This document shows, piece by piece, positions 5,226 to 14,517 of a stretch of DNA of 14,746 nucleotides; position 1 is the first letter of the stretch; every line of letters starts with the position of its first letter. Under the pieces are notes generated by a model. That model did not search any database. It saw only the letters and a list, made by a program, of their open reading frames with translations, and had not been told where the DNA came from. This DNA comes from Candidatus Helarchaeota archaeon (GTDB taxonomy: Archaea > Asgardarchaeota > Lokiarchaeia > Helarchaeales > RDOG01): positions 1-14,746 of the forward strand of contig JALGVI010000083.1 of assembly GCA_029838215.1 (NCBI GenBank), written 5' to 3'. The position numbers and the translations under genes were made by a program.

Positions 5226-5546
5226 CTAAGAGATTATCATGTTCTTCTCTAAAGCATCTATTAAAAGAGAAGACTTATCTTTCATTCGATGAAATTCATC
5301 TGGCGTGTAACAAATAATATCAACGTGTTTTGGAAAATTGATTAATTTCAGTACCATGGACATTCTTAACACGAAGGGAATTCCCTTGAATTCATCAGAT
5401 ATGATGATGACATCAATATCGGAACCTTCCATTGCTTCACCTTTAACTCGAGACCCAAAAAGGATTATCTTATCTGGTTTCAATCGCTTTTTAATTATTG
5501 GGAGCGCTTCTGCCTTGAACTTCTTGATCCATGGATCATTCGTCAT
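5226..5546 (-). CDS. Minimal nucleotidyltransferase (MNT), antitoxin partner of HEPN
   Basis: IILFGSRVKG...GSDIDVIIIS (GS-x10-DxD) with later VDII, 106 aa; overlaps the HEPN gene by 11 nt. Confidence 0.9.
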   Translation of the reverse strand: MTNDPWIKKFKAEALPIIKKRLKPDKIILFGSRVKGEAMEGSDIDVIIISDEFKGIPFVLRMSMVLKLINFPKHVDIICYTPDEFHRMKDKSSLLIDALEKNMIIS

Positions 5547-5940
5547 CTTTTTCTTTCAACTCTGCATAATATTTTTCTAAATTCTTAAAAATACTCTTTG
5601 CGTGTTTCAATTTTGCCTTTACGATTTCCTCATCATACTCCTCATAGGGGACATGTTCCGCAATATCTGGATATCTAGCAAACATGTAATCAGGAACGAA
5701 ATCCATTAAATCTTGAAGCATGCTTTCAGGTAAATGTAAAATTCGCCCTAACTCATCTAAATAATGGATTTTGGGTATTTTCATTCCTCTTAAAGCTATT
5801 ATGGACTTAAGTAGTTTCTCAACGGCTTGATGAATTAGAAATGCAGCAATATCATAGCCTTCAATAGTTATATTTTTCTCCGCCATCTCTAAATCGTGAA
5901 CTGCTTGTTTAAACCATTTCACTGCTACATCCTTATTCAT
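5536..5940 (-). CDS. HEPN-domain protein (MNT-associated toxin)
   Basis: W..QA..DL..A, AAFLIHQAVEKLLKS, IPKIHYLDEL and ARYP are typical of MNT-linked HEPN proteins. ATG 5940 sits behind GAAGGAC, which makes it more likely than TTG 5955. Confidence 0.88.
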   Translation of the reverse strand: MNKDVAVKWFKQAVHDLEMAEKNITIEGYDIAAFLIHQAVEKLLKSIIALRGMKIPKIHYLDELGRILHLPESMLQDLMDFVPDYMFARYPDIAEHVPYEEYDEEIVKAKLKHAKSIFKNLEKYYAELKEKDDE

Positions 5941-6151
5941 GTTTTTGTCCTTCAAATAACTCTTGGAAATCCGTTAAAAGAATAGATGATCAATGAAGAT
6001 TATAATTTAATCGGGATCGCGACCATCCTCATTTCACATACAACTACTTCGGAATCACAAGGAATTGAAAAATTCTCTTGAATATTTAAAAAAATTTAAA
6101 ACAGCAGTTGAAAAGGGAGTAATCACTTTAGATTTGATATGATTTTTAAAT

Positions 6152-8396: not shown

Positions 8397-10904
8397 TCAC
8401 TCCGTGATGTGATTTTGTTGCATGTAATCAGTTAGGACCTTCACACCCTGTTCACTAAGCGAATAGAATCGGAAGTTTGAGGATTCTGCTTGCACGATCA
8501 GTTGAACTGCCATTCCAATATTGAGAATTTCTTCAATGATAATGGGATGTAGATTCGTGCGGGTCTGAATGCCATCTTTTCGGGATTGAAGGGAGTCAAG
8601 TAAATCTTTCATGACGAGATACGGAAAATAAAACTGTGGACCTTCAGTGGGCATTCCAAAAACGTAGAAATATTCTTCCAATGCAGTTCGTTGTGGAACT
8701 TGAGTGGTTTCAGGTGAGAATGCAATTGAGTTTTGAACGCGTATTTTGAGATCGTCATCCGTGAAATGTTCGGAGAGATCCGGAATGGAAAGGAATACGG
8801 GAAATGCTTCAAGAACATCAGGACGCTTGAGCAATGCTTGGGCTGGTGGGAGGTTTTTCAAGTATGTTATGCGTGGTTTTTGCTTTTTATTATGAGGATC
8901 GATCCCAAGAAGCGGAAGAAGAGTCTTGAGGTCGAAAGGATCTCGAACAGTCGTGGAAAAAATCGTTTCAAAATGTGCAAGAATGTGCGAAGGAAATGCT
9001 TCACTCGCGTGCGGAAGATCTTGAACCAAGCAAGTTCGTGTATGACGACAAAGAGTAAAAATCTTGTCGAATACCTTACAAGGTTTTCTGAAATCGCCTT
9101 GGAAGACTTGTTCAACATCGTTATATATGATAAATCCTTGCAATCCTTGATCTTGAAGAGTCAAAAGAATCTTGAATAGCAAGAGAAGACTGGCGGCTAA
9201 ATGATCGTTATAATAATGTTCGTCGATTTCGATAAGGATGGGTTCACGACGCACGAGTTGTTTCATTGGAATCTTTGTATTCTGCAGGGCGGAAGCGATA
9301 TATCCCTTTGACCAACTATCAAAAACGTGATGTAATCGTTGATATTCGCGGGCATCTCTTATATCCAAGTCTTTCACGTGGATCGCATTCAAGAGCTCCT
9401 GATTGATCTGACTTGGACCAGTATTGGGCGTTGAATTGCCAACAGTAACTTGCTTGTGTAACAAATCCATTATCTTATTCTTGAGGAGCGTGAGTGTTTG
9501 TGGCGTTAATGGAAATAGAGTTTCGATGATTTTTAGAGCGCATGTAGCATAATATTCAGGATCAATTCCTTCAGTATCGAAAAATCCGAAACTGGCATCC
9601 TGTCCTAGGCGCAATACCAAGAGTTGGGGAAAGATTTTAGCAAGATCGCGTAAGCGTTTCTTTTTAGTAATGATGATGCACGGTTTTTCCGCCTTTAACA
9701 AGTTATATAGTAGACATTCAGCAATACGTGAGCGGCGTTCGGGATGATCTCCCGAAATCAAGATGGAACCTTTAAGATGAGCTTCTAAGAGTCCAACTTT
9801 GGTTTCTGATACGGCCCAAGTAGGATCATAAGTCGTGCCGAAAGGAGTAAAATCATATCCCAAGTTAGTGGGCACGATGAACTGGGCATTGGGCACGTGT
9901 GAAAGTGACTTTTTAATGGTATTAGAAAGACGAAAAACGTTATTTATAACTTCACGCCCGGATAAGAGGAATTTATGCTCGGATTCAGGAAATGCGGCAG
10001 TCTTAATGAAATGAATGAGCTGAGGCTTTTTGAAAGGGACCACCTTAGACTCACGAAAACTAGAAGACGTGATTGCAAACAATCGCTGCCCTTGTAACGA
10101 TACTTGTCGCCAGAGACCTGCCCGAATGTCCGAGAAAATGCCATTAAACTTGCTCTGGACTGCCATCGTGGTGAAATAAATCGCCCCTTTCCAGACACCT
10201 GCGTGATCGTTTTTTATTATTTCGACATGCTTTTTCAAGTTTTTCTTAGAAATTTTTTTGCGTTCTCTCCAGGAAAATAGTGTTTTATAATTGTCTGGAT
10301 TCAGCGGTGCAATGTCTAACCAATAACTAAATGGAATGCGAGCTCCATAAAGTTGATCCACGACATTCTCAAATTTTCCCTCGATTTTAGATGGAAATTC
10401 CGTGATTTCATAGACTTTCATTCCATAGATCTCTTCATCACTCTCAAAAAATAAAACATCACCCTTTCCCATCCCATTAGAATTGTCGGGCTTCCAGAAA
10501 TAACAAGCCTGGGGTCGCAGGGGAGATATTCTTTCAATATCTTTTACTGTTGAAAGCCATGAAACCAAACTTGACCTGATATGAGGTTGAAGAAAGAAAA
10601 TTAAGGAACCAAAAATCGATAAAAATAAGGAATATCCCAATACCAGACTCAAGTAGATGTTTACGAAACCAAATAAACAAATGGGAATGAGGAATGAAGC
10701 TAAAGCAATACATCCTGAAATTATTAAACCATTAAAAGATACTAGAGGATTAGAAACAAATTTACGCTTTTTCCAAGTAATGCTAGACTTGAAAGTATTA
10801 AGTCCGGGAAATTCGCCCATCTCAAGACCGGCTTTAAGAACTTGTCGCATTAAAGCTGCTTGAGAAAAACGAGAATTCCCATTGAAATTCATCTTTTTTT
10901 GCAT
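8397..10904 (-). CDS. Membrane-anchored HerA/VirB4-like (DUF87-type) P-loop protein with degenerate catalytic motifs and C-terminal winged-helix-like segment
   Basis: Two TM helices (about aa 55-105). Secondary-structure spacing matches FtsK-HerA cores: SILISGDHPERRS at the Walker A position, KPCIII strand, FIIYNDVEQVF at the Walker B position, LKNLPPAQALL...AFPV at the C-terminal strand. ATG 10904 lies 6 nt after TGAGGTG, so it is preferred over GTG 10913. Confidence 0.6.
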   Translation of the reverse strand: MQKKMNFNGNSRFSQAALMRQVLKAGLEMGEFPGLNTFKSSITWKKRKFVSNPLVSFNGLIISGCIALASFLIPICLFGFVNIYLSLVLGYSLFLSIFGSLIFFLQPHIRSSLVSWLSTVKDIERISPLRPQACYFWKPDNSNGMGKGDVLFFESDEEIYGMKVYEITEFPSKIEGKFENVVDQLYGARIPFSYWLDIAPLNPDNYKTLFSWRERKKISKKNLKKHVEIIKNDHAGVWKGAIYFTTMAVQSKFNGIFSDIRAGLWRQVSLQGQRLFAITSSSFRESKVVPFKKPQLIHFIKTAAFPESEHKFLLSGREVINNVFRLSNTIKKSLSHVPNAQFIVPTNLGYDFTPFGTTYDPTWAVSETKVGLLEAHLKGSILISGDHPERRSRIAECLLYNLLKAEKPCIIITKKKRLRDLAKIFPQLLVLRLGQDASFGFFDTEGIDPEYYATCALKIIETLFPLTPQTLTLLKNKIMDLLHKQVTVGNSTPNTGPSQINQELLNAIHVKDLDIRDAREYQRLHHVFDSWSKGYIASALQNTKIPMKQLVRREPILIEIDEHYYNDHLAASLLLLFKILLTLQDQGLQGFIIYNDVEQVFQGDFRKPCKVFDKIFTLCRHTRTCLVQDLPHASEAFPSHILAHFETIFSTTVRDPFDLKTLLPLLGIDPHNKKQKPRITYLKNLPPAQALLKRPDVLEAFPVFLSIPDLSEHFTDDDLKIRVQNSIAFSPETTQVPQRTALEEYFYVFGMPTEGPQFYFPYLVMKDLLDSLQSRKDGIQTRTNLHPIIIEEILNIGMAVQLIVQAESSNFRFYSLSEQGVKVLTDYMQQNHITE

Positions 10905-10941
10905 GCATGCCACCTCAGGACATAAAAAATATTGAATTCAA

Positions 10942-10968
10942 GAAATGCAAGCACGAAACTTGCATTTC
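10942..10968. promoter_or_regulatory. Perfect 10-bp inverted repeat upstream of the HerA/VirB4-like gene
   Basis: GAAATGCAAG 10942-10951, spacer CACGAAA, CTTGCATTTC 10959-10968. Lies between the TATA-like TATTAAAAG (minus strand) and the SD. Confidence 0.5.
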
Positions 10969-10974
10969 CTTTTA

Positions 10975-11010
10975 ATACATGTTCGCAAGGTTGGGTGCTT
11001 CAACCATAGC
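10975..11010. repeat. Left copy of a long inverted repeat (IR-L)
   Basis: 10975-11001 ATACATGTTCGCAAGGTTGGGTGCTTC. Its reverse complement matches 14288-14314 at 26/27; looser similarity continues to 11010 (GCTATGGTT versus GCTACGGC). Confidence 0.9.
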
Positions 11011-11326
11011 TTGCTATTATTCAATCTTCAAATGAAGGTAATGAGTGTTCCAATCTCATATTTGCAAGGCACGGATGCACCCCGATTGAGGATCGAAAAA
11101 TTGAGATGAGAAAAAAAGGAGAAAATGTCGGAACTTTCTTCCTAAAAAAAACAACGCTCAAATCATTCTTTTAGACATTGAATGGAGTTTGTAGTGCGTG
11201 ATAAAAAAATTATGCTTACGTTCTTTTTGATCCTGAAGGGTAACCATTAACCTCAATATTTTCGTCTAAATACCATTATTTCTTGGAATAGAACTTGATT
11301 TAATTGTTGAAGTGAAAGATCATCTT

Positions 11327-11479
11327 GGTGCGGAAAAATCCCGCCGAGCAGCGTGTATTACAAAACGATACGGGGTTCGGGTCGAAGCAACCCGGATTTC
11401 GAAATCCAAACCTTCGGGTTTGGTCTCTACTTTTTTAAAATACACGCTCCCGGTGGAACCCGCGAGGGTCTCCACCCCC
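11327..11479. ncRNA. Unidentified highly structured element (candidate ncRNA or DNA hairpin cluster)
   Basis: About 54% GC by manual count in AT-rich flanks. A 10-bp perfect stem 11350-11359/11439-11448 encloses three abutting hairpins (11378-11394, 11394-11407, 11406-11423), with extra hairpins at 11330-11344 and 11452-11476. Confidence 0.55.
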
Positions 11480-11544
11480 ATTTTAAAAAATTTGGCTAGT
11501 TGGCTCAAAACACAAAAATTAATTAAAAAATACAGTTAGAATTC

Positions 11545-12932
11545 TCATTTTCTTCTAAATTTATTCTCTTGAAATTTCGGACGTTTTTTCAACTGGTTCA
11601 TTAAATAAAAGCCCAAGATTATCCCTGCAATGATCAATACGCTGTACTGGATCATTTCACTGAACGGTAGTAAGAGAGGAGGGTATTTAATTGTTGCAAA
11701 ATCGAATTCTGAAAGTAGATAAGAAGAATTTGTGTAATATACTTGATTACCCTGTTGGTATTCGGCAGAATCCCACAAATCCCCATCCTGCCAAATCCAA
11801 TGAACCGTATCATTGTAAACGCAAAAGCGAACCGCCCGAGGATCATTTAATGCAGGAAAATAAAGGATTCGTGGCACTTGCCAAGAATTTAAGATCGGAT
11901 CATGATGTAAATAAGTTAAAAAAGAACCCTGCAATAACCAATCAATATTAATGATGTTCCAAGTTGGATAAGTCACGTGAATACCTCCGATATCGTCCGC
12001 ATGTAATTGAGCTTGTAGAGGTCTCAATTGGTTCCGCGAATCCTTGATCAAGTAGAAAGATTCAATCCCCGAATCACCAGACCATGTATAAATCGTGAAA
12101 TTATCGAGATCTAACGATGGAGCGTTGGCAATGAAAAGATGACCTGACTCACCACGTTCGATATCAATGAAATGATCGCATGTCGTAGTTTCCATGATGT
12201 CATTTGATACAATGAGCGTGAGATTATCCGTGTAAGTAAGGCTCACGAGTTGTGGTGGTTTGACACCGGTCATCTTGATGTAGATATAAGAAAAAACGTT
12301 CCCCTGTGGTAGAAGCCACGTTTCCGTAAACGATCCTTGCTGCAAATATGTAAACATGTCAATTGAATAAATCAATTTATCACTCAACGTCTCAGCAGTT
12401 AAGTTGTGGGCTACCAAGCGATATTCCACGTATAATCCCGCAGACTTCACGTACGAGAAATAACTAAGGTTATTTGTGGCCCAAAAACCATAATTTTCAT
12501 CAGTCCAACGTGCATGAATTAGGCTTGATGCCACCGTGCAGTTGAACCACGTATCATTATTTTTAAATTAAGAATTCTGGCGTGGGACAAGTACAGAGAA
12601 CCGTTAATGAATTCTTCAGTAATATTGTAGATTAGCGTGGATTGTGTAGTAAATCCACTATCTGATTTCACGCCATGATGCAATCCTCGCTCATCGAGCC
12701 AACATGCTTGCACGTGTCCTGAAGAATTAACGGAAATATCTGGTGAGTAGCTTGCAATATCTCCAAATCCGACTTGGAATGCACGTGATGAAGGCAAGGC
12801 AGAGCTTGAAATGAAACGAGTTGTTACTAAAGGCATTTCTTCAGGTACGAGCAAGATAGTAGAAAAAAAAATGAATGAACAGAATATAAATAGAAAAAGG
12901 ATGAAAGTAGCACGAACACGATGGCGACTCAT
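11545..12932 (-). CDS. Surface glycoprotein with beta-propeller-like repeats, N-terminal signal/anchor and C-terminal TM; split by a -1 frameshift near 12561
   Basis: ORF 12932-12519 carries a signal peptide and SYSPDISVNSSGHVQACW. ORF 12534-11545 continues open upstream to 12567 in the -1 frame and ends in a TM plus basic tail. The joined product is 462 aa with 11 N-x-S/T sequons. ATGA-coupled to the upstream gene, with SD AAAGGTGA. Confidence 0.65.
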
Positions 12933-14257
12933 GAAATCACCTTTACAGGAACGACATTAAGTGGAATCAATTCCTTTCCATGACAAGACGGACACTCGAA
13001 ATTTTTAGCATCCGTAAGAGCCGTCAAGTAATCCACAACGTGAAAGCAATTCTGACACTGGAAATCGAATGCATGTCGTGAAGAACCATTTTCATTCAAG
13101 GATTTATTCCGGTGGCGTGAATTGACAAGAACCATTGCTAAAGTCAGGAAGCGATCAGAAAGTCGATAAAATTCCTTGTGCCGGTCATCCATGAACCCCA
13201 CGATAAAACCCTTGTCTTGAAGGCGATAAAGTGCTTGACGAATGGCAGATGAGGAATAATCAAGGACATCTTCGAACCGTGAATAAGCAAATTCATCCAA
13301 TCCATGCTTCATTTTCAAATAGCAGGCAAATCCGAGCAAGATCAATTCAAGTTCGGAACAGTCGTGATGGTGAAGGATGCGTTGAAGAATGGGATACTTT
13401 AATTTATAAGCATTAAGAGCTTGAAGTGCAAGAAATTTCGCTTGTTGAACCCTAAATGCTTGTTGGAATCTTAAAACCGCAGAGGCGTATAAGTGAAGAC
13501 GACATGTCACGATTCCACTTGCATTGAGCTCATATTTTGTAAGTGAGGATTTAATGTCGTTATAAGAGAGAAAATCTTGTATCTGTCGTAGGAAATTCTG
13601 GGCAGGATCGTGTTGGTTTCGGACCTTCATGGCACGTACGGTTATGGTGCACTTACCCTGGAAGATACGGTTATTCTTGAACATGACAAACACGCGCTTG
13701 GAGTTAAAATAACCCGAAAGAATTTTCTCCTGGAGCGTGATGGGTAAATATTCAGGAATGCGGGGGGTTCTATAAAACGTCTTTCGTGAACCCATGATGG
13801 CATTAAAAAGCTTACAAAGAATCAGGGGAAACGTTATGATATATTCTCTAAAATAACGTCGATGTCGTGCCTTTTTATAGGTCTTACGCCCACGATCATG
13901 ATGTGATACATTAAAAGAAATATTCAAAGAACGTGAAAACGATTCGATAAGTGCAAGTTGACGATGCTGGACGCGTATGATAAATTGTTTTGACCAGAGT
14001 GCATTGCCAAGACATAACCCCAACATGTATGCCATTGTGGGCGTGACCGTCAGGGGAAACGGTAGCGTGAGAATAGTTCCGGGATTTTCTTTCAAGCGAA
14101 CTTTTATCATTCGCTCCTTGACTTTTGGCATTAAATTTGGGAAGAAGCTCGTCCACTTGTCTTTCTCGGAGTTATAATATTGAAAACCCTGCCTGCTCAA
14201 TTCTATCGTGAGCCTTTTTTCGACAGCGGTGGTTTGGTCGTTGTTTTCTCTCTTCAT
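12929..14257 (-). CDS. Degenerate LAGLIDADG domain fused to TFE-alpha-like winged helix and Cys4 zinc ribbon; putative transcription factor
   Basis: AYMLGLCLGNA (aa 76-86) and RIPEY...ILSGYFNSKR (aa 166-188) are two LAGLIDADG-type helices. AIRQALYRLQDKGFI is the wHTH. FQCQNC-x17-CPSCHG is the Zn ribbon. SD GAGGGT lies 8 nt before the ATG. Confidence 0.65.
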   Translation of the reverse strand: MKRENNDQTTAVEKRLTIELSRQGFQYYNSEKDKWTSFFPNLMPKVKERMIKVRLKENPGTILTLPFPLTVTPTMAYMLGLCLGNALWSKQFIIRVQHRQLALIESFSRSLNISFNVSHHDRGRKTYKKARHRRYFREYIITFPLILCKLFNAIMGSRKTFYRTPRIPEYLPITLQEKILSGYFNSKRVFVMFKNNRIFQGKCTITVRAMKVRNQHDPAQNFLRQIQDFLSYNDIKSSLTKYELNASGIVTCRLHLYASAVLRFQQAFRVQQAKFLALQALNAYKLKYPILQRILHHHDCSELELILLGFACYLKMKHGLDEFAYSRFEDVLDYSSSAIRQALYRLQDKGFIVGFMDDRHKEFYRLSDRFLTLAMVLVNSRHRNKSLNENGSSRHAFDFQCQNCFHVVDYLTALTDAKNFECPSCHGKELIPLNVVPVKVIS

Positions 14258-14279
14258 GGTCGCTTACCCTCAAAGGAGG

Positions 14280-14314
14280 GCTACGGCGAAGCACCCAACC
14301 TTGCGACCATGTAT
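14280..14314. repeat. Right copy of the long inverted repeat (IR-R)
   Basis: 14288-14314 GAAGCACCCAACCTTGCGACCATGTAT, the inverse of IR-L. Lies 30 nt upstream of the LAGLIDADG-TFE start codon and abuts TATAAAT. Confidence 0.9.
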
Positions 14315-14517
14315 AAATCATGGACAACGAAGCATCATTTGCTAATCATTAATTCATTGGAGATCCTTAATGATCTTGTCGAAGCTTAAAAAAATACAAA
14401 AGAATGCAATTTTACTGGGGAAGAATCAAATATTTTTCATGAAGATGAAAAAAAATGAAATGCAAGTCTTCTTTTTTTCCGTTGATTATCTTTTTAATAT
14501 TTAGTACATGTAAGAGA

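Follow-up and report, generated by a model that had tools for sequence, protein, structure and literature searches.

The window analysed in this study, the whole stretch of 14,746 nt, corresponds to contig C45 of a genome (G000) of 3.6 Mb that is 94% complete, and its proteins have their nearest named relatives in Helarchaeota/Helarchaeales. Within a 630-nt gap separating two minus-strand genes lies a GC island (11327-11480). Its GC content is 54%, whereas the flanks have 31% and 22% and the genome, in which the island is single copy, has 39%. No other 153-nt stretch of the window is as stable (-61.9 kcal/mol for the island vs. -47.3 kcal/mol for the runner-up). The island ranks second in structure among the 128 GC-rich intergenic islands of the genome, and folds better than 200 of 200 dinucleotide shuffles on either strand (z -4.39 on + and -3.96 on -). 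An earlier sequence-only reading had pointed to this island; its base composition and the z of about -4 on both strands bear this out, and all the motifs quoted in that reading were located in the sequence. The features of the locus are collected in Table 1.

Table 1. Features of the island and its surroundings in the window.
Feature	Position	Strand	Remarks
Membrane-anchored protein, labelled HerA/VirB4-like pseudo-ATPase by the sequence-only reading	8397..10913	-	label putative; not adjacent to the RNA in L123
Left copy of 30-bp inverted repeat	10972..11001	+	327 nt upstream of RNA start; 93% identical to 14288-14317
Archaeal TATA box	11299..11306	+	first T 29 nt before predicted start
Predicted non-coding RNA gene	11328..11480	+	~153-157 nt, start G11327 or G11328; from folding and reciprocal covariance-model best match with L123
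End-pairing helix P1	11329..11333 (5' strand), partner 11460-11464	+	alternative: local 5' hairpin 11330-11344
Core domain	11350..11448	+	P2 around three-way junction
Closing stem P2, 10 bp	11350-11359 / 11439-11448	+	pairing probability 1.0 at 37-65 C; inverted repeat I15
Hairpin P3, 12 bp	11371..11401	+	7-nt loop 11383-11389 of form C-NNN-GCA; conserved with L123
Hairpin P4, cUUCGg tetraloop	11406..11423	+	pairing probability 0.96-1.0
3' hairpin, GCGA tetraloop	11452..11476	+	predicted fold; excludes P1 and vice versa
Short T-run (T4), probable terminator	11481..11484	+	inferred; L123 has T5 at the same place
Membrane-anchored surface-protein gene	11545..12932	-	convergent on RNA; split by 82-nt deletion at 12568/12569
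442-aa LAGLIDADG-TFE-like protein (regulator)	12929..14257	-	tandem LAGLIDADG fold, winged helix, zinc ribbon (TFIIE-alpha-like); candidate target
Regulator promoter/leader	14255..14317	-	contains right repeat copy; P3-loop complement 14287-14293

The island lies tail-to-tail with an operon of the regulator and the surface protein, in which the regulator is the first gene, and is situated about 65 nt past the last stop codon of the operon both in the window and in a second locus, L123, described below. The structure of the regulator gave Foldseek matches to PI-SceI, I-OnuI, WhiA and TFIIE, and its gene was found in six of the seven genomes of the order and in none of the 154 other genomes of the class. 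The regulator encoded in GCA_054799095.1, an assembly that lacks the downstream contig, is 53% identical. The surface protein is intact (489 aa) in three sister assemblies; the split of its gene in the window is an 82-nt deletion relative to these assemblies and not a programmed frameshift. The left copy of the inverted repeat is a partial duplicate of the regulator promoter/leader, and its counterpart in L123, a 14-bp exact match, lies 316 nt upstream of the RNA there. Since part of the leader recurs 327 and 316 nt upstream in G000 and L123, respectively, the repeat, the operon and the RNA form a conserved layout. L123 also has several partial copies of the leader sequence. In the window, about 100 nt within 10915-11045 resemble the regulator promoter/leader (p 0.002) and include a 10-bp palindrome (10942-10968); this segment, which is followed only by a frame of 22-25 codons, is possibly a duplicated control region.

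On the other side of the island, the protein encoded at 8397..10913 gave no Pfam match and no significant PDB sequence match. A conserved Helarchaeales cluster (L049, L050, L051, L053, L055 and L123) comprises a helicase, small membrane proteins, a HerA-like protein that is split or fused, and a FEN1 paralog, usually near the LAGLIDADG-TFE gene, and is reminiscent of archaeal DNA-import clusters. Farther away in the window, a HEPN and nucleotidyltransferase gene pair typical of a toxin-antitoxin module follows the histidine genes (5226-5955).

The comparison with known RNA families suggests that the RNA is outside every catalogued family and is probably new and of narrow distribution. A search of Rfam 15 gave no match over the element at E ≤ 10, in agreement with the novelty proposed by the earlier reading, and the L123 copy likewise had no meaningful one; the literature search turned up no work on Helarchaeales non-coding RNAs. 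The earlier reading did not recognise the element as a tRNA, 5S, SRP or RNase P RNA. ARAGORN called no tRNA on the element, Rfam gave nothing, and the genome carries its RNase P RNA on C93, its SRP RNA on C88 and a permuted 5S on C27. The element is not the missing 5S, because the permuted 5S is present on C27, and covariance models built from the window element (R1) and from L123 alone (R2) gave no match to any of these three RNAs. This 5S rRNA gene with swapped halves, which Rfam missed, lies at about 24585-24750 of C27 (L162), and similar genes occur in five relatives (L115-L119). An acceptor-like pairing of 11327-11333 with 11470-11476 (6 of 7 pairs) was observed, with CCA at the end of the element, and is not common to L123. 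An interrupted or permuted tRNA was rejected, as ARAGORN was empty, no T-loop motif was present, and the closing stem was on inspection a perfect helix without the 3-4-3 bulges of a BHB motif. Uncalled by ARAGORN as well were tRNA-like genes with long or multiple introns elsewhere in the genome (C102 5100-5360, C97 8700-8900 and C1 37300-37480).

Several other identities were tried and rejected. For a hammerhead ribozyme, GAAA (11401-11404) and GUC (11423-11425) are in register, but neither strand of the element contains CUGANGA. The window copy has neither box C nor box D of a C/D box guide RNA, and no reading frame for a small protein is common to the window and L123 copies. An IS200/IS605 omega RNA or insertion-sequence end was discarded since the element is single copy and no such gene was recognised nearby.

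Concerning the fold, P2 closes a three-way junction with P3 and the UUCG hairpin P4 in the predicted ensemble, and the overall fold is predicted to be an interrupted rod with the junction at its tip. This differs from the cloverleaf described in the sequence-only reading, in which three back-to-back hairpins (11378-11394, 11394-11407 and 11406-11423) were placed inside the closing stem. These hairpins overlap at G11394 and at C11406/C11407, so that, having bases in common, they cannot all form at full length; the central palindromic one has a pairing probability of about 0, and forcing it costs about 9 kcal/mol. The four-way cloverleaf lies 6.5-9 kcal/mol above the minimum, and two hairpins at a three-way junction are predicted instead. 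The hairpin at 11346-11378, which had been taken as a possible switch, reaches only -6.4 kcal/mol with a probability of 0 and was rejected in that role. The GCGG-N7-CCGC 5' hairpin and the 3' GNRA hairpin of the same reading, on the other hand, were found at 11330-11344 and 11452-11476. The outer part of the rod has near-degenerate alternatives, namely the end-to-end P1 pairing and the separate 5' and 3' hairpins, which are 1.5 kcal/mol apart at 37 C. The predicted pairing probability of P1 rises from 0.14 (37 C) to 0.54 (65 C), and the end-paired rod is the energy minimum at 60 C. In L123, all six P1 pairs can form, compared with five of six in the window, with one G-C to U-A change; the P4 counterpart is much longer, and the 3' GCGA hairpin is absent in its window form. 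A long interrupted rod is also seen in the SRP RNA S domain, 6S RNA and 5S rRNA, the S domain having a three-way junction at its tip and 6S RNA a similar size, but this likeness is one of topology only, as the conserved motifs and the Rfam score of these RNAs are lacking in the element.

The strand had been left open by the earlier reading, whereas the promoter position, the T-run and the G.U exchanges relative to the homolog favour the + strand. The TATA-like box (11299-11305) and the TTTT (11481-11484) noted in that reading are present, and the distance from the first T of the box to GUGCG is an identical 29 nt in L123. Only 0.4% of genome positions have a TATA-like box exactly at -29, and among the GTGCG words this holds for just one of 14 in the window and one of 35 in L123; tRNA-Leu(CAG) of the same genome has a similar box upstream. 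At the level of the sequence, a putative promoter and terminator of its own, as expected for a trans-acting sRNA, are present as the conserved TATA box and the T-run. Because the wobble exchanges in P3 (G.U, G-C and A-U, relative to L123) keep the pairing on the + strand only, and because the promoter and the cUUCGg and GNRA tetraloops are on this strand, an RNA from the + strand is favoured, and we regard a + strand gene as likely.

The opposite view, that the regulator/surface operon mRNA carries the island at its 3' end as a cis-acting stabiliser or terminator on the - strand, is improbable. It would fit the nearly equal folding of the - strand, on which several A.C mismatches of the outer rod become G.U pairs, and the distance of about 65 nt to the stop codon in both genomes. 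However, a T-rich tract (11510-11535) lies on the - strand between the stop codon and the element, P3 would have four A.C mismatches on that strand, the operon-sense strand of L123 folds worse than the other (z -4.1 vs. -5.8), and there would be no explanation for the TATA spacing conserved on the opposite strand.

The homolog was reached by following the neighbouring proteins, after DNA and covariance searches of other Asgard genomes had come out empty. Full-length relatives of the surface protein were found in L056 and L123 only, and L056 ends before the RNA site. In L123, the RNA copy lies at 13185-13027 (-), downstream of and antisense to the same regulator-surface operon, in a segment that folds with z -5.8. 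The best match of R1 in L123 was 13040-13205 (-), with 10.7 bits and E 0.6, and the best match of R2, with tRNAs, rRNA, RNase P, SRP and IS ends as decoys, was the window element, on the + strand and nearly full length, with 13.9 bits and E 0.29. The matches are reciprocal best, although neither is significant alone (E 0.29-1.3); the alignment by sequence only is weak (z 1.9), and L123 came near the top, not at the top, in a structure-profile alignment. Both copies begin with GUGCG, are 153-159 nt long and end before a T-run. They share a hairpin of 11-12 bp, P3, which aligns without gaps and with 97% of cells paired; four of its pairs changed on both sides and four on one side, and the loop C-NNN-GCA was kept, a covariation between two independent sequences only, which does not amount to a formal test. 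In strain L059, one G.U pair of P3 is replaced by A-U. Taken with the conserved layout, these data make it likely that the window and L123 RNAs are homologous. The regulators of the two genomes are only 41% identical.

Beyond these two copies, the searches, which covered a sample of partly incomplete genomes, gave nothing further. BLAST against 400 Asgard genomes, a comparison that the earlier reading had envisaged, found no further homolog, and two 25-nt matches fall in coding frames. R1 found none in 150 genomes of the class and six other genomes of the order, and R2 found none in 150 genomes, with a sensitivity that is low since the copy in G000 itself was missed. A joint core model (R3) gave one match across the order, in G123, with E 0.23 and without the loop motif, and exact motifs in genome, viral and metagenome contigs were found only in unrelated coding sequence and terminators. 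Strong intergenic folds (z -3.7 to -5) also occur near the same Helarchaeales cluster in G128 and G123 (L049 6060-6250 and 1330-1500; L050 4340-4520). Such structured intergenic stretches of these two genomes were considered as homologs and rejected, as they gave no score with R1, R2 or R3. The proposal of a novel non-coding RNA in the sequence-only reading is supported by the lack of an Rfam family, by the archaeal spacing of the promoter and by the compensatory changes in a probable homolog that is syntenic. The island is likely to be a real, lineage-restricted gene whose product is tightly folded and about 155 nt long.

A different function had been offered in that reading, namely an ssDNA signal of the oriT or packaging type for the neighbouring HerA/VirB4-like protein. 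More generally, the island might be a DNA-level signal (oriT, packaging or attachment site) or a decayed mobile-element end, for which we see little probability. Around a central palindrome of 14 bp the element is quasi-symmetric, the model built from it also matches the reverse complement (E 1e-5), the 30-bp inverted repeats bracket the segment, and in L123 the 3' part of the RNA directly repeats the leader, in the manner of an attL/attR pair. Against this, the element is single copy and unrelated by BLAST to the multicopy IS-end hairpins of the genome, no transposase or integrase was recognised in the window, phage and plasmid collections gave no match, and the wobble-type covariation points to RNA. 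Moreover, the neighbouring protein has no GK[ST] at its Walker A position, and an oriT or packaging signal is unlikely because L123 keeps the element by the LAGLIDADG and surface genes while the HerA-like gene is found beyond the operon, at a distance of about 6 kb. In the window, no relaxase was recognised. As for mobile elements of this genome, a multicopy multi-hairpin repeat was observed mostly at contig ends (C103, C49, C28, C127, C154 and C96, together with C158) and is probably an insertion-sequence end.

The bracketing repeats also raise the idea of a bridge-RNA-like guide with which a recombinase, encoded at another place, would invert the segment between them. Between the two genomes the repeats differ, within each they agree, and the GCA of the P3 loop with adjacent stem bases complements the repeat in both. 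The likeness to IS110 bridge RNAs consists of the size and the partial complementarity to segment-bracketing repeats (PMC11208160). However, no recombinase was found near the element or in the genome, where a search for the IS110 transposase (PF02371) was negative at 94% completeness, nor were paired left and right guide loops identified. As the orientation of the segment is also the same in three sister assemblies, such a guide is very improbable.

The complementarity between the RNA and the regulator leader is strong in L123. In the window, a 9-bp leader stem (14303-14311 / 14255-14263) would bury the AUG, and such an AUG-burying fold is predicted in three genomes (window 14255-14311, L123 8500-8564 and L056 1395-1435), which makes the regulator leader a candidate cis-regulatory element in its own right. 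A 39-nt match with 79% complementarity joins the 3' strand of the L123 RNA and the 5' strand of its own leader hairpin. The score of this match is 67, compared with a maximum of 56 among 3144 control leaders, none of 300 shuffles was as good, and the cofold with the leader is -19.3 kcal/mol, compared with -1.3 to -4.9 kcal/mol for non-cognate pairs. In the L123 model, binding frees bases -8 to -3 and the AUG stays in a small hairpin.

In the window, the pairing involves a different part of the RNA. The sole exact 7-mer complement between the RNA and the leader is the P3 loop. The complementary word is present in 15 of 3144 leaders, and the pairing can be extended to about 27 bp; some unpaired 7-mer of the RNA finds a match in 37% of leaders. 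Taken as a whole, the fit does not reach significance (15 of 150 and 164 of 300 shuffles were as good), with rank 115 of 3144 and a cofold of -1.7. The L059 substitution G11375A breaks one predicted trans pair and, if the box at 14310-14317 is the regulator promoter, most of the matched stretch would be untranscribed.

The weak complementarity in the window is what a reading by protein binding, in place of pairing with the leader, would account for. The RNA could act, for example, as a decoy or ligand of the LAGLIDADG-TFE-like regulator, with a rod that mimics the repeated site; in that case, the resemblance to the leader in L123 would come from copies of a site bound by a protein. Long sites are read by LAGLIDADG folds, some of which are maturases that bind RNA. 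The LAGLIDADG maturase structures 1p8k and 2ab5 are among the matches of the regulator, and both genomes repeat leader sequence, in inverted orientation, about 320 nt before the RNA. But the window rod resembles the repeat only weakly and in the orientation opposite to that in L123, and the regulator is present in five other genomes in which no such RNA was found; we consider a decoy possible but rather unlikely.

Somewhat less likely still is an orphan stable RNA with a role unrelated to the operon, in which case the L123 complementarity would be a relic of local duplication. The lack of a significant target in the window genome, the several partial leader copies in L123 and the L123 duplex substitutions, only one of four of which is wobble-compatible, all agree with such a relic, whereas the element has kept its place, its orientation and its distances to the operon and the repeat in spite of the divergence of the regulators.

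Base-pairing regulation is the best-supported mechanism on account of the strong L123 match, with a window match that is much weaker. Probably, the RNA pairs with the message of the adjacent regulator and surface-protein genes and regulates them in this way; that it is specifically an antisense regulator of the regulator-gene leader is a tentative conclusion, which we place first, ahead of the decoy, the orphan function, the 3' UTR structure and the DNA signal, and with the recombination guide last. In this mechanism, a free-standing gene would give rise to a stable RNA of about 155 nt by + strand transcription from its own TATA promoter. The RNA would pair with the 5' strand of the regulator leader, whose hairpin buries the start codon, and the pairing would alter translation of the regulator, most simply by releasing the initiation region. 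The computations show the structure, the uniqueness of the element, the promoter spacing, the synteny, the compensatory pairs and the strong complementarity in L123; the homology of the two RNAs, transcription, binding in vivo and the direction of the effect are inferences. A bolder and rather doubtful extension is that the RNA is a dedicated switch that unlocks the translation-locked leader of a domesticated homing-endonuclease/TFE-like regulator and that the RNA, the leader and the repeats co-evolve as one control circuit. If this is true, the RNA would come from the opposite end of the module that the repeats bound, and the circuit would govern a cluster of surface-protein and DNA-handling genes.

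Asgard archaea are close prokaryotic relatives of eukaryotes. An RNA with a named adjacent candidate target would be a directly testable case of RNA-based translational control in these archaea, and it is tied to an unusual LAGLIDADG-TFE-like regulator; without a function, it would be one more orphan Asgard RNA. The weight of the finding is limited by the two independent sequences, the narrow distribution and the weak complementarity in the window genome.

Several known systems can be compared with this proposal. CopA/CopT-type plasmid antisense RNAs act by kissing loops and are cis-encoded and fully complementary to their targets. The likeness to the present case lies in a 7-nt hairpin loop that is exactly complementary to a single-stranded part of the leader, and the difference is that the RNA is encoded 2.8 kb away from the leader and is partly complementary. 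In the action of DsrA and RprA on rpoS, which are anti-antisense activators, a leader hairpin buries the initiation region and its inhibitory 5' strand is complemented by the RNA. Both features recur here, whereas DsrA and RprA are bacterial, Hfq-dependent and shorter, and the AUG release is only partial in the L123 model.

Archaeal sRNAs are known to pair at ribosome-binding regions (PMC5867862). Like the RNA proposed here, the trans-acting sRNA154, sRNA162 and sRNA41 of Methanosarcina mazei are intergenic, separately transcribed and stably folded, and their loops pair with mRNA initiation regions; the target of sRNA162 is the transcript of a transcription factor (PMC5867862). No Rfam link joins the Methanosarcina sRNAs to this RNA. 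Unlike for those sRNAs, the candidate target here is the first gene of an adjacent convergent operon, and the duplex predicted in L123 exceeds 30 bp.
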